DNA of 64,000 nt from a virus. Lineage: Duplodnaviria > Heunggongvirae > Uroviricota > Caudoviricetes. Shown piece after piece: positions 2,987 to 36,750 of the stretch. The stretch lies in IMG/VR virus record IMGVR_UViG_3300041409_000458; one strand, 5' to 3'. Position 1 is the first letter of the stretch. Every line of letters begins with the position of its first letter. Both the position numbers and the translations under genes were made by a program. The notes under the pieces were generated by a model, which was not told the DNA's origin, made no database searches, and was given only the letters and a program-made list of their open reading frames with translations.

Positions 2987-3300
2987 TATTCGTAATTTTT
3001 AATTGTTACCTCTTCTGCAATTAGATAATACATAATTGCTTTCTGAGAATAGTATTCAGCAGTTATATCTGCTATTTTTTCAATTTGTTCCTTAGTACAA
3101 GCTATTCTCACAGGAATCATCCTTTCTTTAAAAAGTTCTCCTGCAGATGAAACCCATTGACCTTTGATAGGTGGTATTATTGTTAATCCACCTGTAATCT
3201 TCCTTACTTTCGAATCCCACACCTTGTGATATCTCGTTCGAAAGGGTTTTCCTTCATTACTTATTGTTGGAACTAATATTTCATAGAAGAGCATTTTCAT
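2986..3300 (-). CDS. hypothetical protein
   Basis: 104 aa ORF, stop-start overlap with flanking genes (operon-like packing). Confidence 0.35.
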   Translation of the reverse strand: MKMLFYEILVPTISNEGKPFRTRYHKVWDSKVRKITGGLTIIPPIKGQWVSSAGELFKERMIPVRIACTKEQIEKIADITAEYYSQKAIMYYLIAEEVTIKNYE

Positions 3301-3704
3301 TCACAGTGCTTTTTATAGTTTTCAAGATAACTTTTGATGTTATGCAAACCCACATCATTCATAGAATGAATAAAATACTTTGGAAGAGGTTTCTTGTGCT
3401 CCATACAATACTCAACCAGCCATTTGGCACAATCCAAACCTGTCATCTCTCTATTCTCCTGCTTATTATATGTTTCCCAATCCATTGTATCTATCACAGA
3501 ATAGTGCTCATCTGCCAAATCATGGTCAAATGCAATCCATTCAGGTAGTCCAGTATTGCTAATTAAGTTGACGAATTCCTTGTAATCCTTACACGTAATC
3601 CACTTCATATTAAGAAGCATATCAGCATAATCAGGATGCATATAAGAAGCTGCTACTTTCGGTGTACGAATGTCATCTAAAAATAAATTATAGGCCATTA
3701 TCAA
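3297..3704 (-). CDS. hypothetical protein
   Basis: 135 aa ORF, tightly packed with neighbours. Confidence 0.35.
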   Translation of the reverse strand: MIMAYNLFLDDIRTPKVAASYMHPDYADMLLNMKWITCKDYKEFVNLISNTGLPEWIAFDHDLADEHYSVIDTMDWETYNKQENREMTGLDCAKWLVEYCMEHKKPLPKYFIHSMNDVGLHNIKSYLENYKKHCE

Positions 3705-6423: not shown

Positions 6424-6692
6424 AGTAAGTCTTTTAATGCTTGTTTAGGCTCAAAATGATTTAAAGTTTCTGAACTATTACTACGGATTAGATATTCTAT
6501 AGCTTTTGCTTCTATATCTTCTTCATCGAGAGATATTTGTTTATGAGTTAGTATGTTTTCGAGGACTTCTGTAGCTGTATCCAGTTTATCCCAGCTACTG
6601 TTTCTTAATCGTCTTTCGACAGAATCCAGATATCTTCTGTTATTCTCTATCTCCTTCTTAAGGCTCTCTAGAGGTATTAATAAATGTGTCAT
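6420..6692 (-). CDS. hypothetical protein
   Basis: 90 aa ORF. Confidence 0.3.
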   Translation of the reverse strand: MTHLLIPLESLKKEIENNRRYLDSVERRLRNSSWDKLDTATEVLENILTHKQISLDEEDIEAKAIEYLIRSNSSETLNHFEPKQALKDLL

Positions 6693-7465
6693 TTGCTGAA
6701 TTTTGCCTCAAGAGCTTGTATGAGTTTTGACATATTACCATCATAGAAGCCTGAGCAGTTTATACAATTGATTTCCAACACTTTATACTCATCTTCAGAT
6801 AGACAAATATCTAATACGAAGGCATCTGCAGGACAATATAAATCACAAATTTGCTGAGCAAATATCTGAGCTTCCTGATTATTGTCCATGTTCAGGTAAT
6901 TAACTCTTCTACCAATTTTGTATTGACTAATTGTCACAGGTTTACCGTCAACAATCCAACAGCGTATCTCCTGTTGAATTTCCTTTAGAGGAGCTATGAG
7001 AATCTGTGTTTCTGCTGTTAAAGTTTGTTTAAGTGAGCTATCCTCAATTTCCTGACTCCATTCATTCCAGCTTTCATGGGTAAATATTTGTCCACTGAAT
7101 TGCTTCGTATCCTTTGTAGGACGAGCAAAGAACAAATGCGGATAATCTTCTGGAACTTTATCTCCAAAATTGATGACTTTACCATCAGAGTTAAGCATGT
7201 GATTGCCATAATGAGCTCCATAAACAGTCAAATCATGGTTTTCATTATACATTGAGCCCGGATACCAGTCATATTTCTTAGCTACAACAGCTAAATTTGT
7301 GGACCCGAAAGCCCAAACGTTTTTACGGTCCGTTTTGAACTCAAGTTCATCAGTAAATGGACGGAAGGGTATAACTTCATAGTCCATATTATATCTCTTC
7401 AAATGCTCTATTAGAGTATTGAAGTGGTGCTCTCTAAAGAGATTCTCTTGAATGATGTAATACAT
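6689..7465 (-). CDS. ATP-grasp fold enzyme
   Basis: 258 aa; C-terminal EIRCWIVDGKPVTISQYK ... FVLDICLSEDEYKVLEINCINCSGFYDG typical of ATP-grasp ATP-binding/catalytic lobes. Confidence 0.55.
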   Translation of the reverse strand: MYYIIQENLFREHHFNTLIEHLKRYNMDYEVIPFRPFTDELEFKTDRKNVWAFGSTNLAVVAKKYDWYPGSMYNENHDLTVYGAHYGNHMLNSDGKVINFGDKVPEDYPHLFFARPTKDTKQFSGQIFTHESWNEWSQEIEDSSLKQTLTAETQILIAPLKEIQQEIRCWIVDGKPVTISQYKIGRRVNYLNMDNNQEAQIFAQQICDLYCPADAFVLDICLSEDEYKVLEINCINCSGFYDGNMSKLIQALEAKFSK

Positions 7466-10296: not shown

Positions 10297-10698
10297 TTAA
10301 GGAATATCTTCCGTTGATAATACTTTTTCTGCATAGTGATTATCAATATAGTTGTGAATTCTATATGTAATCTCCTCTCTATCATAAGAAACTCCTATTT
10401 CATTATGTGGATGGTCCTCAAACTCACAACTGTATTTTATGAAATAGTCAGAGATTGCTGTCCAAAACTCATGTATATAGAATTCTCTGAATTCACTTGG
10501 TATATCATTATATGATTTATCATGTAACTTGTTATTCTCTCTATACCATGATAATCCTGCTGCTGTTGGTCTCCATCTCTGAACTACCCTTCTAAAAGTC
10601 CATACCTTACAATTTCTATAGGTATGTTCCTCAACATCAAGAGGTTTTGCTGTACGAGATAAATATATCTCCGCAACATTTCTGAACTCTTCTGTCAT
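10297..10698 (-). CDS. hypothetical protein
   Basis: 133 aa ORF. Confidence 0.35.
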   Translation of the reverse strand: MTEEFRNVAEIYLSRTAKPLDVEEHTYRNCKVWTFRRVVQRWRPTAAGLSWYRENNKLHDKSYNDIPSEFREFYIHEFWTAISDYFIKYSCEFEDHPHNEIGVSYDREEITYRIHNYIDNHYAEKVLSTEDIP

Positions 10699-11045
10699 CT
10701 TCCATTAAAGTTAGGGGTTAAGTAATGACCTCCAGCATTAGAAGGACAGTTTAAATACTCACATACTTCTTCTCTAGTAAGTCTTTTGGCTTTATTCCAG
10801 TTATTTCGTTCCATTACGTCCATGCTTAAGCCATCTACTTTAGTCATATAAAACCCTTGCTCTTTTGAGTCGAATTTTATTATAGTACAAAAGTTGTCCA
10901 TTCTGGTAACAATAAGATTTGGAACTATATCTTTCGGTACCCATTTACGAGGAACTCTTTTGGTCACCTCAGCTGATGCTGGAATAAGTTTACCTATTAA
11001 AGGTAATACAAATAATCCAGCTAAAAAATTACGTCTATTCATATT
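10695..11045 (-). CDS. secreted protein with twin-arginine (Tat) signal peptide; start adjusted to internal Met
   Basis: Internal MNRRNFLAGLFVLPLIGKLIPASA has RRxFL Tat motif plus hydrophobic core and ASA-E cleavage site; using this Met removes the overlap with the upstream gene. Confidence 0.45.
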   Translation of the reverse strand, partial: NMNRRNFLAGLFVLPLIGKLIPASAEVTKRVPRKWVPKDIVPNLIVTRMDNFCTIIKFDSKEQGFYMTKVDGLSMDVMERNNWNKAKRLTREEVCEYLNCPSNAGGHYLTPNFNGR

Positions 11046-11052
11046 ATATAAT

Positions 11053-11679
11053 TTATAATAATAACAATCTATCAACTCCAAAAGCAAATCCGACTCCTCC
11101 TTTATATTCTCCTCCTCCACATACCTGTTTTTGAGCACCTAAGTTATTACAGCTTATTTCAAAGCCCTTTCCGTCCTTGTAGTAATCCAAACCTCTCTTT
11201 ACATCACTTCTAAGCTCAAATGAGCCCGGAATGCTCTTATAAAGGCTTACAGCTAAATCCTTCAGATATCCAAGGTAATCTTTTGTAGGGTTAAGTATTT
11301 CAACCCCTAATTGAGTAAATTGACGATATCTTCCAGATTGAGGTCGTTCTCCTCTGAAACATTCCTGAATGTAGAATAATTTGACGTCCTTTTTATGTTT
11401 GAAAGTTGTAGACGCAAGTTTTTGGACTATTGCCGTATATTCTGGAGCCAAACATATATCTCTTCCTCCTCTGTCTTGAAAATTGAACATGAGATTGTTG
11501 TTTTCCTCTCCTACTTTTCCTTTAAAGGTCTCCTGAAGCTGAATTATTGGAATCGACATTTCTGTGAATCCTTCCGTAATGAGTCTTTGAACTGATTGTT
11601 CAATAAAGTCTCGTTTTCTGTTGCCAAAGAGGATTCGGGTACCTTTATAGCAGGTTTCTTTGATTTCAATGTCTTTCAT
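11053..11679 (-). CDS. class II aminoacyl-tRNA synthetase-like core (HisRS/HisZ-like), lacks anticodon-binding domain
   Basis: YKGTRILFGNRKRDFIE ... FQDRGGRDICLAPEYTA (HisRS N-terminal pattern); motif 2 FRGERPQSGRYRQFTQLGVEI; motif 3 GGGEYKGGVGFAFGVDRL; only about 210 aa. Confidence 0.6.
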   Translation of the reverse strand: MKDIEIKETCYKGTRILFGNRKRDFIEQSVQRLITEGFTEMSIPIIQLQETFKGKVGEENNNLMFNFQDRGGRDICLAPEYTAIVQKLASTTFKHKKDVKLFYIQECFRGERPQSGRYRQFTQLGVEILNPTKDYLGYLKDLAVSLYKSIPGSFELRSDVKRGLDYYKDGKGFEISCNNLGAQKQVCGGGEYKGGVGFAFGVDRLLLL

Positions 11680-11681
11680 AG

Positions 11682-12068
11682 TTATTTTCTTTCTTCTGGT
11701 TGTCCACAATAAATGCAGGAATCTTGCTCTGTATCATCTTCATGATAGTCACATTTGCCATCTGGTGAGTCTCCATTGCAATCCCAACGGTCATCAATTT
11801 CTTCACGTAATCTTGTACCTGAGTAACCCTCAAGCTCAGGAACTTCTTTTAGAGGATATTTACCAAGATAATGAGGTTTAAAACTGTCTCTAGAGTGAAG
11901 TAGGATTGGGTCAGTATATAGAGAAGCAATATAATCAATACTTTGACTCCATTTTTCATTGCTTTTAGGGATATCCATCAATTTATGGATTATCACCCTT
12001 TCTCTGGTAAAGACATTACGTATCATTCTCACTCTATCCTGAAAGCTATAGGGATTTCTTTTATCCAT
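11682..12068 (-). CDS. hypothetical protein
   Basis: 128 aa ORF; Cys/His-rich C-terminus (CDYHEDD...CIYCGQPE). Confidence 0.35.
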   Translation of the reverse strand: MDKRNPYSFQDRVRMIRNVFTRERVIIHKLMDIPKSNEKWSQSIDYIASLYTDPILLHSRDSFKPHYLGKYPLKEVPELEGYSGTRLREEIDDRWDCNGDSPDGKCDYHEDDTEQDSCIYCGQPEERK

Positions 12069-18130: not shown

Positions 18131-18183
18131 AATTCTTTCTGTTTGTTCATTTTTGAATATCTAGCTCATATTTAATCTTTTAG

Positions 18184-18255
18184 TGCAGATAAAGAGAATC
18201 GAACTCTTGACAAAAGCTTTTAGAGAGCCATGTTCTACCCCTGAACTATATCTGC
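18184..18255 (-). tRNA. suppressor-like tRNA with anticodon CUA (amber-reading)
   Basis: Hand-folded: acceptor GCAGATA/TATCTGC (7 bp), D-arm GTTC-AGGGGTA-GAAC, anticodon loop CTCTAAA (C32 U33 CUA A37 A38), T-arm AAGAG-TTCGATT-CTCTT; anticodon stem has only 3 WC + 1 GU pairs. Confidence 0.55.
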
Positions 18256-21951: not shown

Positions 21952-23841
21952 TTAAATTGTGTTCTTTCTCACCAGTTCATATCTGTTTGACCTGTGGAAT
22001 GATTGCAATGGTGTATAAACATCCATTACATCCATATCCTTAAAGTTTGTTAACAGTTGCTCAATCTGAGCTGGATTTGGTGGAACAAACATGAAATTGT
22101 CAATACCTGAGAATCTGTCAGCCTTAGCTGAAGATGCCCCGGCAACATCAATGGCGATGATAAATGGTCTGAAGCCAAAGTATTTCTCACATCTCTTCAT
22201 AAAGTCATTGATTGAGCTCTCTGGAGAAGGCATGTTATTCCAGTTTCCATCGGAAATGATGGTCCAAACAGGGAAATGCTGTAATTGTTCAGTCATTGTT
22301 AAATCTCCCTGCAATTGCTGGTTCAGGTATTCCGGAATAGAACTAATATTCGTACCGTTTCCTGTCTGTACAGCATGACTAAACTCTCTTATTCTCTTGA
22401 GGTTATCAAGGAAATGAAGATTTGGGTCCAGTAATGGCTGACTTACCTTCTGTGCAGTTGTACGCAGAATTGAATTACCTGTTAAAGGAGCTCTGGCTGT
22501 CATTGTATTATACAACCTTGCATGACTTGAATAAAATCCAAGTAATGACCTTCCTTCTTCAGATGGGTTCTTTGTAAGACAGATTGTAGCCATGAAAGCA
22601 GCAAAATCAAAGGCTGTAATACCATTGGTTTTGTAAGTAGTCATTGAACGTGAATCATCCACAAACACCAGATTGTTGAATTCCAGCTTAATCTTATCAA
22701 GGAATGGCTGTAGTTTTAACTTATCAACAGTTCCAAGGATTATTTCTGTGAATAATTTCTCAAATTCAACAGCACCAACAGTAACTTTAGCTTCTTTCTT
22801 CAGCTTTACCACGTTTTCCTTTTCTTCTTCAGTAGCTGTTCCCTGACGAACCTTTTCTTCTACTACACGTACCTCGGTCTGCTTTGCTTCCTTAAACTTC
22901 TCCCAAGCTAAGAACCAGTTACCAATATCACCCCATTTCTCCTTGCACTTGTTATCCTTATCCAGAACCCTGCAACGAACTCTATAACGAGCAGTTGCTG
23001 GCAGTTTGTCAAGAAATAACAGGAAACTATCCTTATCAAATTCTCTCACCTTACCTGAGGCAAACATTACACTTTCCAGTTCACCAATGTATTCCTTTCT
23101 CCAGTTAATGTAACCAGTGAATTCAACATGTGTTGTTTTCTTCACATATGGCAGATTGGCTTTATCACACACCAATTTCAGGAAGTGTTGTTTTGCACCC
23201 ATGTTTGCTTTCGTTTCCAGAAGCATGGTTTTGTGATTCTTCCTCTTACTTAACCTTGGTCTTGTAAGGAATTTTGCCAACAGATGCTTATCAGAAGGAT
23301 TTCTTCTTTTAATAACACCTGCACAAAAGTCAGCAAGGTCATTCAGATATTCATCTGTACCATCAAAACTGGAAGTAACTGATACAACTTTCTTGGTCTT
23401 TTTGGTTGTTTTTACCCTGTTCTTAAGTAATGTATCAAATGAAGTAAATTCATTGAACAAGTTTGCAAACAGGAACTTCTTGAATTGTGGATAGTTCGTC
23501 TTTTTAAGCCATTCGAAGGCTAACAGAAATGGTTCCCTTTGTGATGAACCACCACTATCCGTTTTCACTCCTTTAAAGATATTGTGCTGACGAGCAGTAA
23601 TATCTCCAATAGAGAATAATAAGGAGAAGAACATCTCTCTTCCTTCTTTACTTTTCTGAGCTTCAGCCCAGCTTCTGTCGAGCATACCTTGGTTGATTGT
23701 CCCTTTCGAGGCATTCTGATAGAACTCGAGAGTGTTTCTCATTCCGTAGAATGGATTGTCTGTCTTTTTGTTCACTTGAACTGCTAAATTTGCCATGTTG
23801 ATGGTTTTGTAGGACACTTTTTCCTTTTGATTAACATTCAA
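21952..23841 (-). CDS. large protein with C-terminal von Willebrand factor A (vWA) domain
   Basis: 629 aa; MIDAS-like LVFVDDSRSMTT (DxSxS) and downstream WTIISDGNWN (DG motif). Confidence 0.5.
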   Translation of the reverse strand: MNVNQKEKVSYKTINMANLAVQVNKKTDNPFYGMRNTLEFYQNASKGTINQGMLDRSWAEAQKSKEGREMFFSLLFSIGDITARQHNIFKGVKTDSGGSSQREPFLLAFEWLKKTNYPQFKKFLFANLFNEFTSFDTLLKNRVKTTKKTKKVVSVTSSFDGTDEYLNDLADFCAGVIKRRNPSDKHLLAKFLTRPRLSKRKNHKTMLLETKANMGAKQHFLKLVCDKANLPYVKKTTHVEFTGYINWRKEYIGELESVMFASGKVREFDKDSFLLFLDKLPATARYRVRCRVLDKDNKCKEKWGDIGNWFLAWEKFKEAKQTEVRVVEEKVRQGTATEEEKENVVKLKKEAKVTVGAVEFEKLFTEIILGTVDKLKLQPFLDKIKLEFNNLVFVDDSRSMTTYKTNGITAFDFAAFMATICLTKNPSEEGRSLLGFYSSHARLYNTMTARAPLTGNSILRTTAQKVSQPLLDPNLHFLDNLKRIREFSHAVQTGNGTNISSIPEYLNQQLQGDLTMTEQLQHFPVWTIISDGNWNNMPSPESSINDFMKRCEKYFGFRPFIIAIDVAGASSAKADRFSGIDNFMFVPPNPAQIEQLLTNFKDMDVMDVYTPLQSFHRSNRYELVRKNTI

Positions 23842-23865
23842 ATGCTGGAATACCAGCTTTAATTT

Positions 23866-23884
23866 GATTGTAAGTGTCCAAAGT
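23866..23884 (-). promoter_or_regulatory. instance of recurring motif (minus sense TTAAG..ACTTACAA), here 25 nt upstream of the vWA gene start and just 3' of a tRNA
   Basis: Plus strand ttgattgtaagtgtccaaag; the same core ttgtaagt recurs about 10 times between 23.8 and 26.8 kb. Confidence 0.4.
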
Positions 23885-24026: not shown

Positions 24027-24267
24027 TTTAAAGATACTTGGTTTTGTTGACATTATCATAAAATGTTGCGTCTACCAATTTCGCCACCCCACCATTTACT
24101 CAACAGTTACTCCTTTTGAGAGACTGAAGAGTTAATCACATACAAAGGGAACGTATCGTACGAGCCGTTCATGTCTACGTACAGTATTCGGGTATGTGAG
24201 CCCATTGTGGTGGGGCTAGGAATCGAACCTAGAAGTACCCTTTCGGGAGATTGTCTAGTAAGTATCT
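24027..24267 (-). tRNA. candidate circularly permuted / two-piece type II (Leu-like) tRNA gene
   Basis: In minus sense the 3' half (variable hairpin CCCGAAAGGG, T-arm CTAGG-TTCGATT-CCTAG, acceptor CCCCACC) at 24208..24245 lies upstream of the 5' half (GGTGGGG-TG-GCGAAATTGGTAGACGC-A-ACATT-TTATGAT-AATGT) at 24050..24093; 114 nt linker; flanked by inverted repeats agatactt (24260..24267 / 24031..24039). Confidence 0.4.
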
Positions 24268-24335
24268 TAATATTTTGCTAAGCACTATTTGGTCATTGTT
24301 GCAAAATGGTGTCCCACTGAAGGAACTTGATTTGT

Positions 24336-24352
24336 TTGTAAGTGCTTAAAAG
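24336..24352 (-). promoter_or_regulatory. recurring ttgtaagtgcttaaaag motif instance
   Basis: Plus tttgtaagtgcttaaaag; same motif family as 23866, 24659, 24794, 25906, 26716. Confidence 0.35.
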
Positions 24353-24355
24353 TTT

Positions 24356-24541
24356 TTACATATGTTGTCCTAATTCCTTATACGCTTCAGCTAATGCATT
24401 AATCGCTTCACGTATTTTTTGTTTGGCTTTAGGAATATTCTTAACTGCTTTGTTTTTGGCTACATAATCTTCAAGGTTGTTAGTTATGATAGAAGTTCTA
24501 TCCATAGCTTCATGAAGGTAACCTTTGTCTACTTTTGCCAT
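24356..24541 (-). CDS. hypothetical small protein embedded in tRNA array
   Basis: 61 aa ORF MAKVDKGYLHEAMDRTSII...; helical, K-rich. Confidence 0.3.
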   Translation of the reverse strand: MAKVDKGYLHEAMDRTSIITNNLEDYVAKNKAVKNIPKAKQKIREAINALAEAYKELGQHM

Positions 24542-24576
24542 TGGTTTTATTTTAAAAATGAAAGACGCTTATCATA

Positions 24577-24647
24577 TTACAATTGTGGGAATTGAACCCA
24601 CGAGTTTTTATCCAGATTAAAATGCAGAACCACTCTGCAAATTGTTA
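24577..24647 (-). tRNA. tRNA-like element with anticodon CUG (Gln-like) but poorly paired acceptor stem
   Basis: D-arm GCAG-AGTGGTT-CTGC, anticodon stem TTTTA/TAAAA with loop ATCTGGA (U33, CUG), T-arm GTGGG-TTCAATT-CCCAC; 5' TAACAAT vs 3' AATTGTA pairs at only 4 of 7 positions. Confidence 0.4.
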
Positions 24648-24670
24648 GATTGATTTGATTGTAAGTGTCT

Positions 24671-24810
24671 TAATAAATTGAGGATACTTATTTTTTGATT
24701 TCGTGAAAAGAAATTGCACTACCAACTATGCTACCCCTCCATTAACCGACGTGAAACTTGCGGAGGGGGCTGGATTCGAACCAACGTATATTTTGATGGT
24801 CTTGTAAGTA
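24671..24810 (-). tRNA. candidate circularly permuted / two-piece tRNA gene (anticodon UUC)
   Basis: Minus sense order: leader AGGATACTT (24799..24807) - T-arm GTTGG-TTCGAAT-CCAGC (24762..24778) - acceptor 3' CCCCTCC-G (24754..24761) - 20 nt linker - acceptor 5' GGAGGGG (24727..24733) - TA - D-arm GCAT-AGTTGGTA-GTGC - A - anticodon arm ATTTC-TTTTCAC-GAAAT (24691..24707) - trailer AAGTATCCT (24674..24682); acceptor halves perfectly complementary (7/7); leader/trailer 9 bp complementary. Confidence 0.45.
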
Positions 24811-25059
24811 TCCTAAAAAGGTGATATAGTTAGGGGACCCTCTTATCAGGAGGACCTGCCAGCTTATGAGGCCAACAGTTAAAATTTTATTATAAGTAGC
24901 AACTCCAGACCATCTGGATTTTCGACTACTACCGGAGACTCCCCTCGTATGTTATCTACTCCGTGGCTTGTGAAGCTTCGGGAGCGTATTTAATATTTTT
25001 ACTATAGCTTCATTCTTTGCATGAATGTGTGCTGGTAGAAAATGTGATTTTGCAAGATA

Positions 25060-25551
25060 CTATTTATGCTGTAACCAGCTACCATAATCCAAATTTCCTC
25101 TCTTCTTGTTACACTTCTTACATGCTGTAAGTAGGTTTGATGGATGACTTGCACCTCCTGATTCCCATGTGATAATATGGTCTACAGTCAAAGGTACATT
25201 ATCTATTCCACAATACCTACAACAATAATTATCCCTACGGAATACTTGCCATGAAATCTTTTGGTCAATTTGTCTCTGACCTTTACGAAGCAGTTTTCCT
25301 TCTTCGCCTTCAATGTTACACTTGTCAAGCTGGTCTTGTAAAGTATACCATTGCTCAGATGTTGGTGTGATTATAATCAACTCACCTTTCACTTTCTCTA
25401 GAGGTAAATTGACAAGGTAAACCTCATCATCCTTACCCTCCATCAAAAGACCTTTTATTTGAATATCATTACCCCATGAGAGTAATGGGATTTCGTTAAA
25501 CCCTAGAACTTTCGTCATAAGAGTAATTTTAAATGTTAAAAAAGAAGTCAC
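25060..25551 (-). CDS. HNH endonuclease
   Basis: 163 aa; C-terminal CRYCGIDNVPLTVDHIITWESGGASHPSNLLTACKKCNKKRGN is a canonical HNH motif. Confidence 0.7.
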   Translation of the reverse strand: MTSFLTFKITLMTKVLGFNEIPLLSWGNDIQIKGLLMEGKDDEVYLVNLPLEKVKGELIIITPTSEQWYTLQDQLDKCNIEGEEGKLLRKGQRQIDQKISWQVFRRDNYCCRYCGIDNVPLTVDHIITWESGGASHPSNLLTACKKCNKKRGNLDYGSWLQHK

Positions 25552-25658
25552 TAAATCAATACGACAAATTGGTGGGCCGAAACCCTAAGTGTTAGTAAGT
25601 GACTTATAATCTTCAATGTAGCGGAGTGTTTAAGTTTCCGTGCCAATTGAGATATTTG

Positions 25659-25767
25659 TGGGGGAGATAGGAGTTGAACCTATTATCTGTACATTGTAAG
25701 TGTATTGCTTTAACCTTTGAATTTCTTATAAGTAACAAACTATTACTTTTTCTTTAGCTTCTCCCCC
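25659..25767 (-). ncRNA. tRNA-like element: 7 bp acceptor (GGGGGAG/CTCCCCC) and T-arm (ATAGG-TTCAACT-CCTAT) enclosing a 75 nt insert without recognisable D/anticodon arms
   Basis: Perfect 7 bp G-rich acceptor complementarity 100 nt apart; canonical T-loop; insert contains the recurring ACTTACAA motif (25693..25715). Confidence 0.3.
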
Positions 25768-25803
25768 TATTTTACCATTTTTCTAAACGGTACCAAAATA
25801 AAA

Positions 25804-25919
25804 GCTACTAATTTTTTTGTCAAATTACAAGTTTGATGCTCAACCGCTGAGCCAAGATTCCAATGAAGGATTCTATTGGATTCGAACCAATGTTATTTTA
25901 ATTTTCTTGTAAGTAGCTT
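25804..25919 (-). tRNA. candidate circularly permuted / two-piece tRNA gene (anticodon UGU, Thr-like)
   Basis: Minus sense order: leader AAGCTACTT (25911..25919) - T-arm ATTGG-TTCGAAT-CCAAT (25875..25891) - acceptor 3' AGAATCC-T (25867..25874) - 5 nt linker - acceptor 5' GGAATCT (25855..25861; 6/7 complementary) - TG - D-arm GCTC-AGCGGTT-GAGC - A - anticodon arm TCAAA-CTTGTAA-TTTGA (25820..25836) - trailer TAGTAGCT (25804..25811; 8 bp complementary to leader). Confidence 0.45.
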
Positions 25920-26044
25920 AAAAGTTTGATGTAGCACCCTCATAAAGAAAGGGGTCATGTTGACTTACTCTTCCCACAATGCTACCACATCGTTTACCAC
26001 CGCACAACCATCCGTAGTAAACTAGGCTCCTCCGCTAAGAGCAA

Positions 26045-26569
26045 TTATGAGGGTGCTTCATCTTTAATTATTTTATAACCATAATGTTCAAGTACTTCCT
26101 TGCAAGTATCTATGAATTCCTTATCGGTTAAATTGTGTTTCATCTTGTTTATCGTAGCATCAGATAACCCTAAATTTCCAAGCGAATTATCTCCACCTCT
26201 TGATACAGGAATAATATGGTCAAAGTGGTAAGACCTAGAGTCATTAATATCTATTTTGCGTCCAGATAGATAGCAGGTATAGTTATCTCCTATCTTCTCT
26301 CTGAGCTCTTCTAATGTAAACAGAGGAAGGGCTTTTCCCTTCTTATTTGGAAGACCTCTTCTTGCAAACTGAGATTTTTTACAATAGAATTGTTCTCTTT
26401 TCCTAACTAAGGTACTCTTTCCTCGACTTGTTTTTGTTCTCTGCCGTGTCTTTTGCTTCTGTCCTTGTCCACAATGGTAAGAAATATTTCCCTTCGAACA
26501 CCCAACAATTGCTTGGATTTCATCGTAGGATTTTCCTTCTGCTCTTAAACTTAATATTTGCTCTTTCAT
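26045..26569 (-). CDS. HNH endonuclease with N-terminal helix-turn-helix
   Basis: 174 aa; HFDHIIPVSRGGDNSLGNLGL...N..K HNH motif; N-terminal LSLRAEGKSYDEIQAIVGCSKGNISYH HTH. Confidence 0.7.
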   Translation of the reverse strand: MKEQILSLRAEGKSYDEIQAIVGCSKGNISYHCGQGQKQKTRQRTKTSRGKSTLVRKREQFYCKKSQFARRGLPNKKGKALPLFTLEELREKIGDNYTCYLSGRKIDINDSRSYHFDHIIPVSRGGDNSLGNLGLSDATINKMKHNLTDKEFIDTCKEVLEHYGYKIIKDEAPS

Positions 26570-26639
26570 AATTAGTAGTTCAATACAAATGTATGGAAAA
26601 TGTATTGAACTACCAAATTTATTTTCAAAGAAACTTTAA

Positions 26640-26709
26640 TCACAATGTGAGAGTTGAACTCACTACCCTTTTGTTTGAAAAAATGCTCTACCAAGTGAGC
26701 TAATTGTAT
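26640..26709 (-). tRNA. tRNA-like element (canonical D- and T-arms, weak acceptor and ambiguous anticodon loop, possibly CAA)
   Basis: D-arm GCTC-ACTTGGTAG-AGC, T-arm GTGAG-TTCAACT-CTCAC; 5' ATACAAT vs 3' ATTGTGA pairs at 5 of 7 positions plus one GU wobble; anticodon region TTTTTTCAAACAAAAGG ambiguous; preceded by motif at 26716..26735. Confidence 0.35.
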
Positions 26710-26715
26710 AAGTTG

Positions 26716-26735
26716 TTTTGTAAGTTTCTTAATAC
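26716..26735 (-). promoter_or_regulatory. recurring ttttgtaagtttcttaatac motif upstream (minus sense) of tRNA-like element and HNH gene
   Basis: Same ttgtaagt..cttaa core as other instances. Confidence 0.35.
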
Positions 26736-32909: not shown

Positions 32910-33422
32910 ATGAAAACAATAGAATGTATATGTAATAACTGTAATAAGTCTTTTACAAAACCACTAAAGGAACATACGAGGTCCCAAAAAGTAGGGAGGT
33001 CTTCATTTTGCTCCTTGGCTTGTGCTAGTAAATTCAACCCAAATAGATTTGGAGGGAAAGTAGGTAATAGAATTCCACCTAGAAATCCCACTAATCCATT
33101 CAAGTATTATCTAAGAAATATAATGAGGAGACATCATAAATGGGATGTCACTCTTGAGTACCTAAAGCAAATCTGGGATGAGCAAGAAGGAATATGTCCT
33201 TATACTAAAATTAAACTTGTTCTAAATACACATAGTCATAGAAATACTGACATACGATTTACTGCCTCTTTAGACAGAATTAATTCTTCAATAGGTTATA
33301 TTAAAGGAAATGTTCAATTTGTCTCAATGGCAATAAATTATATGAAATCTTCTATGTCTCATAGTGATACTACAGAATTCTTACAAATTATAACAAAGAA
33401 CTTGAATCCACTACTTTCATAA
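32910..33422 (+). CDS. HNH_3-type homing endonuclease, free-standing on the opposite strand
   Basis: 170 aa; N-terminal Cys cluster CICNNC...CSLAC; C-terminal CPYTKIKLVL ... ASLDRINSSIGYIKGNVQFVSMAIN matches the HNH_3 motif; lone plus-strand gene in minus-strand block. Confidence 0.55.
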   Translation: MKTIECICNNCNKSFTKPLKEHTRSQKVGRSSFCSLACASKFNPNRFGGKVGNRIPPRNPTNPFKYYLRNIMRRHHKWDVTLEYLKQIWDEQEGICPYTKIKLVLNTHSHRNTDIRFTASLDRINSSIGYIKGNVQFVSMAINYMKSSMSHSDTTEFLQIITKNLNPLLS

Positions 33423-33682
33423 TGGCGTGGACTATATCTTCACCCGTTCTGGGTGTTGGATGCTCTGGGCTCACCGTAGTGTCCCTAGTCTCTGAACCTT
33501 CCTCAATCTTCCCTGAGGCTCGGCTGCTGATTGCCTACGTCTTTACGTTTAGGGTTCCAGCAATTCTTCCAATTTTTTCATCTGTATTCCTACAAAGCGA
33601 GTCCGATTTTATTCAACTCGGGTCCAAACAGGTGTCTTTCAAAAAATCAATCCTTACGAACTTTGGGCGATTACCATTTATT

Positions 33683-36663: not shown

Positions 36664-36681
36664 TTTAGTTGATTTATTTTG

Positions 36682-36750
36682 TAGAGGCACCGAGATTCGA
36701 ACTCAGATTTCTCCCTCGCAGGAGCGTCCTAGCCATTAAACTATACCTCT
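36682..36750 (-). ncRNA. tRNA-like element lacking an anticodon loop (anticodon arm replaced by a GCGA tetraloop hairpin)
   Basis: Acceptor AGAGGTA/TGCCTCT (6 WC + 1 GU), D-arm GTTT-AATGGCTA-GGAC, T-arm CTGAG-TTCGAAT-CTCGG; middle arm CTCCT-GCGA-GGGAG is a 5 bp stem (4 WC + 1 GU) with GNRA tetraloop. Confidence 0.4.

Follow-up and report, generated by a model that had tools for sequence, protein, structure and literature searches.

A phage tRNA array with three permuted units

The stretch analysed here, called the window below, is 64,000 nucleotides (64 kb) of the IMG/VR virus record IMGVR_UViG_3300041409_000458, part of a tailed phage genome with 36% G+C. Its genes lie on the minus strand from position 1 to 44,400, with the structural genes on the plus strand beyond 44,550, and its large terminase is about 27% identical to the terminases of crAss-like phages. 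Among GenBank phages we obtained no match, either with the region in megablast or with the neighbouring 614-amino-acid (aa) protein in tblastn, and the lineage is represented in metagenomes only. Of the seven conventional tRNAs that ARAGORN detects in the window, three stand in an array between 23.8 and 26.8 kb. The same array holds HNH endonuclease genes and three minus-strand units in which the two halves of a tRNA stand in inverted order, and the gene of the 614-aa protein, Ro60-like in its predicted fold, lies 235 nt downstream of the end of unit 1 (Table 1).

Read along the minus strand, each unit opens with one strand of a terminal helix, here called P1. A single-stranded linker leads to the T arm, and this to the 3' acceptor strand and its discriminator; behind a second linker stand the 5' acceptor strand, positions 8-9 and the D arm, and A26 then precedes a stem of 5 bp that carries a 7-nt loop. 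A further linker and the complementary P1 strand complete the unit. A sequence-only reading of the window had proposed that in three units the T arm and 3' acceptor precede the 5' acceptor, D and anticodon arms, with linkers of 114, 20 and 5 nt between them. Our parse confirmed this order and moved the boundaries slightly: unit 2 runs from 24814 to 24681 and not from 24810 to 24671, since position 24671 is part of the adjacent unit. An inverted-repeat search independently recovered the bracketing repeats as well as the acceptor of unit 1. In agreement with that reading, neither ARAGORN nor Rfam finds a contiguous tRNA accounting for the arms of the three units. The Rfam tRNA family (RF00005) gives partial, sub-threshold matches to them (28.7, 18.9 and 18.8 bits), ARAGORN finds no transfer-messenger RNA (tmRNA) in the window, and Rfam tmRNA matches in the array region do not exceed 15.8 bits. 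When the halves are rejoined in silico (5' half, 4-5 linker nt, 3' half), ARAGORN calls tRNA-Thr(UGU), tRNA-Glu(UUC) and a tRNA with anticodon AUG; the rejoined halves of all parsed units are likewise called as tRNAs (Thr, Glu, Ile and others). For unit 2, the minimum-energy structure from RNAfold is identical to the proposed architecture (z = -3.15). A promoter and terminator scan gave no meaningful excess at the units.

Table 1. Features of the array and the adjoining gene. Positions are those of the window; R1 is the covariance model described in the text.
Feature	Position	Strand	Sequence and remarks
Unit 3	25919-25802	-	Found by parse; R1 108 bits; anticodon loop CTTGTAA (UGU, Thr-type)
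Unit 3, P1	25919-25912/25809-25802	-	AAGCTACT/AGTAGCTT
Unit 3, T arm	25891-25875	-	ATTGG-TTCGAAT-CCAAT
Unit 3, acceptor	3' strand 25874-25868, 5' strand 25861-25855	-	AGAATCC/GGAATCT, 6/7 pairs; discriminator 25867; 5-nt linker 25866-25862
Unit 3, D arm	25852-25838	-	GCTC-AGCGGTT-GAGC
Unit 3, anticodon arm	25836-25820	-	TCAAA-CTTGTAA-TTTGA
Unit 2	24814-24681	-	R1 94.3 bits; anticodon loop TTTTCAC (UUC, Glu-type)
Unit 2, P1	24814-24805/24690-24681	-	AGGATACTTA/TAAGTATCCT
Unit 2, T arm	24785-24769	-	
Unit 2, acceptor	3' strand 24768-24762, 5' strand 24740-24734	-	CCCCTCC/GGAGGGG; discriminator 24761; 20-nt linker 24760-24741
Unit 2, D arm	24731-24716	-	
Unit 2, anticodon arm	24714-24698	-	
Unit 1	24268-24031	-	Found by parse; anticodon-type loop TTATGAT (AUG); 3-bp D stem, 11-nt D loop
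Unit 1, P1	24268-24260/24039-24031	-	AAGATACTT/AAGTATCTT
Unit 1, variable hairpin	within 24259-24233	-	CTCCCGAAAGGG
Unit 1, T arm	24232-24216	-	
Unit 1, acceptor	24215-24209/24093-24087	-	CCCCACC/GGTGGGG
Unit 1, linker	24207-24094	-	114 nt, structured, capping the acceptor stem
Unit 1, anticodon arm	24066-24050	-	
P1 unit with conventional tRNA	26628-26730	-	AAGAAACTT/AAGTTTCTT; ARAGORN Leu-caa 26639-26709
P1 unit with conventional tRNA	24562-24671	-	AAGACACTT/AAGCGTCTT, one mismatch; ARAGORN Gln-ctg 24576-24647
Short P1 unit	25545-25605	-	AAGTCACTT/TAGTGACTT; leader of HNH endonuclease gene 25060-25551
Short P1 unit	24279-24348	-	TAAGCACT/AGTGCTTA; small open reading frame on one side, unit 1 on the other; inverted repeat recovered
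Short P1 unit	23812-23879	-	GGACACTT/AAGTGTCC; leader of the Ro60-like gene; z = -5.6; same place in L001-L004 and L010
Ro60-like protein gene	21952-23796	-	614 aa; helical repeats and a vWA domain with the MIDAS-like motif DDSRS (MIDAS, an adhesion site dependent on metal ions)

Conservation and covariation of the two halves

Unannotated homologues of the 614-aa protein number more than 900 and come from contigs of 90-185 kb. We fetched 46 loci (L001-L046) around such homologues, and a rule-based parse gave 39 distinct permuted units. From 29 short-linker units we built the covariance model R1 (seed alignment A2), which returned 56 matches with E <= 1e-5 in 51 sources; the same arrangement thus recurs in homologous genomes with strong compensatory changes. 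In A2, 96.2% of the cells are in standard pairs versus 35-44% with the partners slid, and 25 of 31 pairs change on both sides. A3, an alignment of 51 distinct sequences derived with the model, gives 94.1% and 26 of 30 for the same two measures. Overall, the slid controls give 35-45% paired cells and none of 500 shuffles reaches the observed values. Because the seeds were chosen by a parse that requires these helices, the percentages of paired cells are inflated by selection; the compensatory changes are not.

Covariation was observed in the acceptor, T, D and anticodon helices, in P1 and in the tertiary 15:48 Levitt pair. This last pair played no part in the selection of units, and it spans both halves, with position 48 in the 5' linker and position 15 in the other half; all of its cells (100%) are standard pairs (C:G 16, U:A 12 and U:G 1 in the 29 units). 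Since the helices and the 15:48 pair that bridge the halves covary, the two halves are predicted to fold together into a tRNA-like L-shape. Invariant positions in A2 are U8, G10, A14, G18, G19, U33, G53 and C61, and T54-C56 are kept too. All five pairs of the anticodon stem (5 bp, 3' of the D arm) show changes on both sides, and the 7-nt loop with U33, which reads C/U-U-NNN-R-A with a purine at position 37, is present in 29/29 short-linker units. The loop CTTGTAA of unit 3 is kept, with covarying stems, in the orthologues of L001, L004, L005, L008, L010, L022, L024, L032 and L035. The UGU anticodon is kept in 10 units while every stem changes, in phages whose Ro-like proteins are only about 50% identical.

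These comparisons confirm, at the level of sequence, that the units are real, conserved, circularly permuted tRNA-type genes whose halves belong together, as the sequence-only reading had argued. Another explanation could be that homing endonucleases rearranged tandem tRNA genes and left the units as debris without function. HNH genes do lie inside the array, and tandem duplication is the accepted origin of permuted tRNA genes. This explanation is nevertheless contradicted by the covariation, and the conservation in 51 sources, with compensatory changes in every helix and in the tertiary pair, leaves it hardly any probability.

Five loci carry near-identical units that differ in their anticodons (L025 7470, UUU; L027 7418, GUU; L028 7376, GAU; L031 7485, GUC; L038 7524, UCA). 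The five have P1, the T and D arms and the anticodon stem in common, and differ in the linker and at a few acceptor-stem positions. Positions 32, 33, 37 and 38 are canonical, and the discriminators do not follow the expected identities. The relative with the UCA (opal-suppressor) unit, contig IMGVR_UViG_3300045988_023742, gave no signal of TGA recoding in the 11.8 kb examined. A pattern scan of viral DNA with ACTTACAA-gap-GGTTCGA was too unspecific, with real units in only 4 of about 120 loci. A similar pattern scan of genome contigs was discarded; its matches came from many unrelated bacteria and are uninformative because CTTACAA is also the anticodon loop of ordinary tRNA-Val(UAC).

In unit 3, the conserved 5' motif UUACAAG (25912-25906) is perfectly complementary to the anticodon loop CUUGUAA (25831-25825), the most conserved loop of the family, and in the minimum-energy fold this pairing replaces the anticodon hairpin. 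The complementarity could be due to chance in A+U-rich sequence or reflect a kissing contact in cis or in trans.

Unit 1 had been described as type II and Leu-like. The variable hairpin is indeed present, but the anticodon AUG is not that of a Leu tRNA and the loops of the orthologues (L001 6608-6829; L002 8541-8762 and 9284-9424; L003 9783-9919; L004 9721-9900) are irregular, with 6-8 nt and U33 missing in some. P1 and an ACATT/AATGT stem are common to these orthologues, and the family's acceptor bears a cap, either a structured insert of 68-114 nt or an extended helix. The unit 1 linker (24094-24207, minus strand) opens, as do those of L001 6608-6829 and L002 8541-8762, with a conserved insert of about 75 nt directly after the discriminator, of the pattern CAATGGGCTCACATACCCGAATA ... 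GACAxGAxCGGCT ... GTATGTGAT, one stem of which covaries (GTACG/CGTAC, CTACG/CGTAG, ACCTG/CAGGT). Theta ribozymes, which are related to that of hepatitis delta virus (HDV), process the 3' trailers of phage tRNAs (PMC10879173) and resemble this insert in being structured RNA directly 3' of the discriminator of a gut-phage tRNA. A theta or HDV-like ribozyme in the unit 1 linker was however rejected, as a lenient Rfam scan (E <= 10) found no family there and the predicted fold consists of two plain hairpins; the short-linker units, for their part, are too small for a ribozyme.

The terminal helix and maturation of the units

P1 is a perfect helix of 8-11 bp without bulges, separated from the tRNA body by 4-27 unpaired nt on each side. 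Its 5' strand reads (A/T)(A/G)G-NN-ACTT followed by AC(A/T)A, its 3' strand is complementary and followed by a T-rich run, and the variable positions covary. The motif RGNNACTTACWA occurs seven times in the window, always on the minus strand and between 23868 and 26729, versus 0.8 expected. In 47 sources we counted 127 P1 units: 27 permuted, 31 around a conventional tRNA, 56 short and 13 unclassified. Several of the short units are gene leaders, including those of HNH genes and of the 614-aa gene, and in some relatives (e.g. L019 4965-5028) the 3' strand of P1 lies within the first codons of the Ro-like open reading frame (ORF). The bracketing repeats noticed in the sequence-only reading are thus real but not specific to the permuted units: because conventional tRNAs and mRNA leaders are bracketed as well, P1 appears as a general transcript-end helix in this phage group and not as a device peculiar to permuted tRNAs. 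It may mark transcript 5' ends, or be a processing or stability signal. As a mark of the RNA units and mRNA leaders of this clade, P1 with its ACUUACAA motif is now a searchable signal.

The leader of the Ro60-like gene (23812-23879) contains a tetraloop hairpin and an anticodon-arm-like hairpin, TTTGA-ATGTTAA-TCAAA; the latter and an extended hairpin that uses the 5' ACAATCAAAT are mutually exclusive folds. Different 'anticodons' are found at the equivalent place in the leaders of relatives. Most P1-bracketed conventional tRNAs have A+U-rich acceptors, ACAATTx/xAATTGT (e.g. 26639-26709, 24576-24647, L001 4523-4598 and L002 9030-9098), and the two in the window have low Rfam tRNA scores (38.3 and 41.7 bits).

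Circularly permuted tRNA genes are known from Cyanidioschyzon merolae, other algae and Thermofilum (Soma 2014, PMC3978253; Chan et al. 2011, PMC3218864). As in the phage, the 3' half lies upstream of the 5' half in one unit, every tRNA element is present, and a short acceptor linker needs RNase P and 3' processing for its removal. If the phage RNAs followed the same pathway, their ends would be joined at P1 and the linker would be removed from a circular intermediate, giving a one-piece tRNA. The gene order and the tRNA calls obtained by ARAGORN with the rejoined sequences would suit such a product, and yet we consider this pathway very improbable. Algal and archaeal precursors carry a bulge-helix-bulge and are circularised by an endonuclease and a ligase, whereas the parsed phage units have no bulge-helix-bulge at the P1 leader-trailer junction; P1 is a plain helix standing 4-27 nt off the body on each side and is found around conventional tRNAs and mRNA leaders too, the break falls within the variable region and the host is bacterial. 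A Pfam scan of about 60 ORFs of the 64-kb window yielded no splicing endonuclease, RtcB or RNA ligase, and bacteria, to our knowledge, have no tRNA splicing endonuclease. The suggestion that P1 is a Cyanidioschyzon-type leader-trailer helix is therefore not retained. A similar difference separates the phage units from the split tRNAs of Nanoarchaeum equitans and Caldivirga (PMC3218864). These also have separately bounded halves united by an extra helix, but their halves are separate genes joined by bulge-helix-bulge splicing and ligation, while the phage halves lie in one transcript with no sign of ligation.

The acceptor region points to another maturation route. Acceptor stems are all 7 bp long and have a discriminator, which is directly followed by CCA in 9/39 units versus 1% expected from composition (p = 1.6e-10); CCA is encoded in 12/155 conventional tRNAs of the same loci, and C74 is present in 26/39 units. 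In L013 (4549-4759), the 101-nt acceptor linker holds a complete conventional tRNA with the anticodon loop TTTACAC, that is, a tRNA nested in a permuted gene. A precedent is YrlA (Rfam RF02553), the tRNA-like Y RNA to which Ro60/Rsr of bacteria and phages binds (Chen et al. 2014, PMC4201824). In M. smegmatis, the acceptor of YrlA is likewise closed and 7 bp long; RNase P cleaves this RNA in vitro, and in vivo it occurs as two pieces, one of them extended by CA (PMC4201824). From the 7-bp acceptors, the CCA, the L013 unit and this precedent, we infer that the phage units are opened into two pieces. The transcript, closed by P1, would fold into the tRNA L-shape; host RNase P would cleave at the 5' acceptor strand, on its 5' side, and the 3' acceptor end would then be trimmed and completed by the CCA enzyme. 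The product would be a two-piece, CCA-ended tRNA-like molecule held together by the acceptor stem on one side and by P1, as an open 'variable arm' clamp, on the other. The two-piece option of the sequence-only reading fits this route, with CCA enriched after the discriminator and YrlA as precedent (PMC4201824).

The permuted units are also related in layout to bacterial tmRNA genes. Two-piece tmRNAs from permuted ssrA occur in alpha-proteobacteria, cyanobacteria and others (Rfam RF04321). In both cases the gene order puts the T arm and the 3' acceptor end before the 5' acceptor strand. In permuted ssrA, where the 3' acceptor ends in CCA, the segment between them is excised, as would be that of the phage units; the pieces stay base-paired and the tRNA-like domain is functional. 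Contrary to ssrA, the phage units have neither a tag reading frame, for which there is no room, nor pseudoknots, and they have the D and anticodon arms that are missing in tmRNA; in a relative, Rfam gives a partial match of 28 bits.

Possible roles of the permuted units

We favour, with a probability of about 0.45, the reading that the units are complete permuted tRNA mimics acting as Y-RNA-type partners of the Ro60-like protein. The RNAs would then work with the Ro60-like protein of the same array, and the context suggests a role in phage tRNA/RNA quality control or counter-defence rather than in ordinary decoding. Ro60/TROVE proteins with tRNA-like partners occur in phages (PMC12135203, PMC7824862), and phage Ro60 with Y-RNA-like partners is known from mycobacteriophages, jumbo phages and the Thermus phage phiLo (PMC4201824, PMC12135203, PMC7824862). 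The 614-aa protein is read, from its predicted structure, as a very divergent Ro60-like protein: the best Foldseek match of its AlphaFold model (predicted local distance difference test, pLDDT, 82.7) is Rsr of D. radiodurans, with E 4e-5 over 598 columns. A permuted unit is present within the retrieved flank of the Ro-like gene in 33/46 loci, at a median of 355 nt, upstream in 14 and downstream in 19. The cREC and NADAR genes of the window, with their theme of RNA repair and NAD-centred conflict, speak for the same reading. At the RNA level, YrlA is the best Rfam family apart from tRNA itself and the sole family that matches the permuted order over its full length. The likeness comprises a terminal 5'/3' stem, an optional variable hairpin, a T arm, a loop-closed acceptor-like stem and a D arm, a covarying 15:48 Levitt pair and a gene beside a Ro60-type gene, which is a putative one in the phage. 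The M. smegmatis RNA has a 7-bp acceptor form that is cut by RNase P, receives CCA and is in two pieces (PMC4201824), as proposed for the phage units. The Y-RNA-type reading fits unit 1 best, with the irregular loops among its orthologues and its structured acceptor cap.

Several observations weigh against this reading. The Ro60 assignment rests on the predicted fold: the 614-aa protein has no Pfam, PHROGs or PDB match in sequence and profile searches, TROVE included, and the TM-score of the Foldseek match is low (0.22-0.27). The proximity to the Ro-like gene is weaker evidence than it looks, because conventional tRNAs are equally close to it and two loci have permuted units with no Ro-like gene within 4-5 kb. 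In these two loci the ORFs beside the units are unrelated to the Ro-like gene; one of them, L119 5435-7021, opens with a GroEL-type motif recognised by eye. YrlA scores (27.0 bits for unit 2, 31.3 for L007 and 29.7 for L024) fall well short of the gathering score of 69. The Ro-binding motif GNCGAA(N)G/CGAA (defined in PMC4201824 and PMC12135203) is missing from the phage units, the P1 5' strand of all units lacking GNCGAA and CGAA. In YrlA the terminal stem replaces the anticodon arm; in the phage units the full anticodon arm is intact and canonical, and P1 branches off where the anticodon arm meets the variable/T region. Because 31 conventional tRNAs and about 56 short units are bracketed as well, P1 is not a dedicated Ro-binding stem, a further difference from YrlA. 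Lastly, the units keep the traits of tRNA decoders, namely canonical 7-nt loops, U33 in 29/29, UGU in 10 units and encoded CCA, and the fit is poorest for units 2 and 3, members of the short-linker class, which cannot be told from real tRNAs save for the permutation.

These traits are those expected if the units give genuine two-piece translation tRNAs, a reading that we hold to be less likely but a serious rival. The acceptor loop would be opened by RNase P and the CCA enzyme, the pieces would be kept together by the acceptor stem and by P1 in the role of a long, open variable arm, and the molecule would be aminoacylated and read ACA (unit 3), GAA (unit 2) and perhaps CAU (unit 1). All tRNA hallmarks speak for it, with U33, a purine at position 37 and a 7-nt loop in the 29 short-linker units, the 7-bp acceptor with discriminator and the 15:48 covariation, as does the UGU anticodon kept in 10 units with all stems changing. 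Encoded CCA is commoner in the units than in neighbouring conventional tRNAs, and the units stand within tRNA arrays and have P1 flanks as conventional tRNAs do. The three anticodons of the window do not duplicate those of its conventional tRNAs and match the codons preferred by the phage (ACA 46%, GAA 68%, CAT 63%), a match that is expected anyway at 36% G+C. The phage group moreover seems to invest in translation, with a histidyl-tRNA synthetase (HisRS)-like ORF and PTH2 in the window and EF-Tu and tmRNA in relatives. Two-piece tmRNA from permuted ssrA, which is aminoacylated and works on the ribosome, gives a model for such a molecule, but we know of no natural two-piece tRNA acting in translation. 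A decoder would also have to bear an appendage of about 50 nt at the break (P1 together with unpaired linkers of 4-27 nt). The unit 1 family, with its irregular loops and capped or extended acceptors, does not look like a decoder, and the near-identical bodies of the five loci bear five anticodons with discriminators that do not track identities. Furthermore, some loci have a conventional tRNA of the same anticodon (e.g. Leu-UAA in L034 and Asn-GUU in L012). On this less likely reading, a large crAss-like clade would make working two-piece tRNAs from permuted genes without ligation, with anticodons swapped on a constant body, once to the opal-suppressor UCA.

The swapping of triplets could also be explained if the RNAs served as decoys or sponges, acting apart from the Ro60-like protein and drawing off either the anticodon nucleases of host defence or enzymes that modify tRNAs. 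The bait would be a genuine anticodon stem-loop, set on a scaffold not open to depletion from translation. The hypervariable triplet of the near-identical units (UUU, GUU, GAU, GUC, UCA), set among canonical positions 32, 33, 37 and 38, is in line with this, and anticodon-arm-like hairpins occur in short P1 units too, that of the Ro-like gene leader included; an alternative fold competes, however, with the anticodon-arm reading of the short units. The window also carries RNA-repair and NAD (nicotinamide adenine dinucleotide)-conflict genes, although no candidate target defence nuclease was identified. A decoy could do without a 7-bp acceptor, without a CCA-bearing discriminator and without a full set of tertiary pairs, and the UGU unit is conserved and not diversifying. 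We regard decoys as improbable.

The Y-RNA-type reading places the units near a known kind of RNA, because phage Ro60 with Y-RNA-like partners has already been described. That permuted or split tRNA genes are undescribed in phages, as had been stated, is accordingly too strong for the order of the elements, the YrlA order being known beside Ro60 in bacteria and phages (PMC4201824, PMC12135203). It stands for complete permuted tRNAs with an anticodon arm: in the literature searched we found neither these nor any other permuted or split phage tRNAs described, and no report of Y RNAs from crAss-like phages. On sequence evidence, the YrlA topology thus belongs to a known kind, and what appears new is the retention of the complete anticodon arm and the spread through a crAss-like clade. 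If the units are Y-RNA-type mimics, the Ro60/Y RNA system extends to crAss-like phages, which are abundant in the gut and the environment, with a Ro60 relative too divergent for sequence profiles and an RNA that mimics a whole tRNA including the anticodon. The question of the purpose of the tRNA-like module in bacterial Y RNAs would then become sharper. If they are decoders, they would be a new mode of tRNA encoding, in which a tRNA works in vivo as two unjoined pieces: the first natural split tRNA functioning unjoined and the first permuted tRNA in a bacterial system, with a bearing on the origin of tRNA from half-molecules. Because standard tRNA finders miss permuted units, phage tRNA repertoires and recoding potential are likely under-counted.

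Other genes and RNA elements

Outside the array, ARAGORN reports a tRNA with anticodon CUA (amber suppressor type) and an odd tRNA-like gene with a 2-nt 'anticodon' (18183-18255 and 36681-36750, minus strand); the large ORFs of the window show no recoding. A group I intron lies at 33408-33624 on the minus strand (75.2 bits, gathering score 50).

The array contains two further structured elements on the minus strand. One, at 25925-26065, is a structure of four hairpins, about 100 nt long, that begins at the stop codon of the HNH gene 26045-26569 and is closed by a long-range helix of 18 bp (z = -4.4, no Rfam match). The other, at 25652-25768, is again tRNA-like. It combines a T arm, ATAGG-TTCAACT-CCTAT, with an acceptor-type helix of 8 bp, GGGGGAGA/TCTCCCCC, after which comes an A. 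Where D and anticodon arms would be expected it has some 77 nt of different sequence, and its Rfam matches are weak (tmRNA 15.8 bits, tRNA 27.4 bits).

Minus-strand ORFs at 2038-2508, 3297-3704 and 6689-7465 match NADAR (3e-23), the cyclic-phosphate-processing receiver domain cREC (6e-21) and an R2K-clade ATP-grasp (3e-19), respectively. Judged by these domain matches, the cREC and NADAR genes suggest a theme of RNA repair and NAD-centred conflict. The HisRS-like ORF (11053-11709, minus strand, 218 aa) has the histidyl-tRNA synthetase/class II core fold (PF13393 1e-15, PF00587 9e-8), and the ORFs 10695-11138 and 10297-10698, which adjoin it, are in different frames. The unit 1 triplet AUG, which reads a His codon, and an eighth pair -1:73 that unit 1 can form may point to a connection with this ORF. 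A further minus-strand ORF of the window matches the peptidyl-tRNA hydrolase PTH2 (9e-8). Among the relatives, L005 has a full EF-Tu (1615-2805, GTP_EFTU domains D1-D3) directly upstream of its array, and tmRNAs are found in L012 (3752-4152, 41.9 bits) and in L024 (3289-3678, 73.1 bits, above the gathering score).

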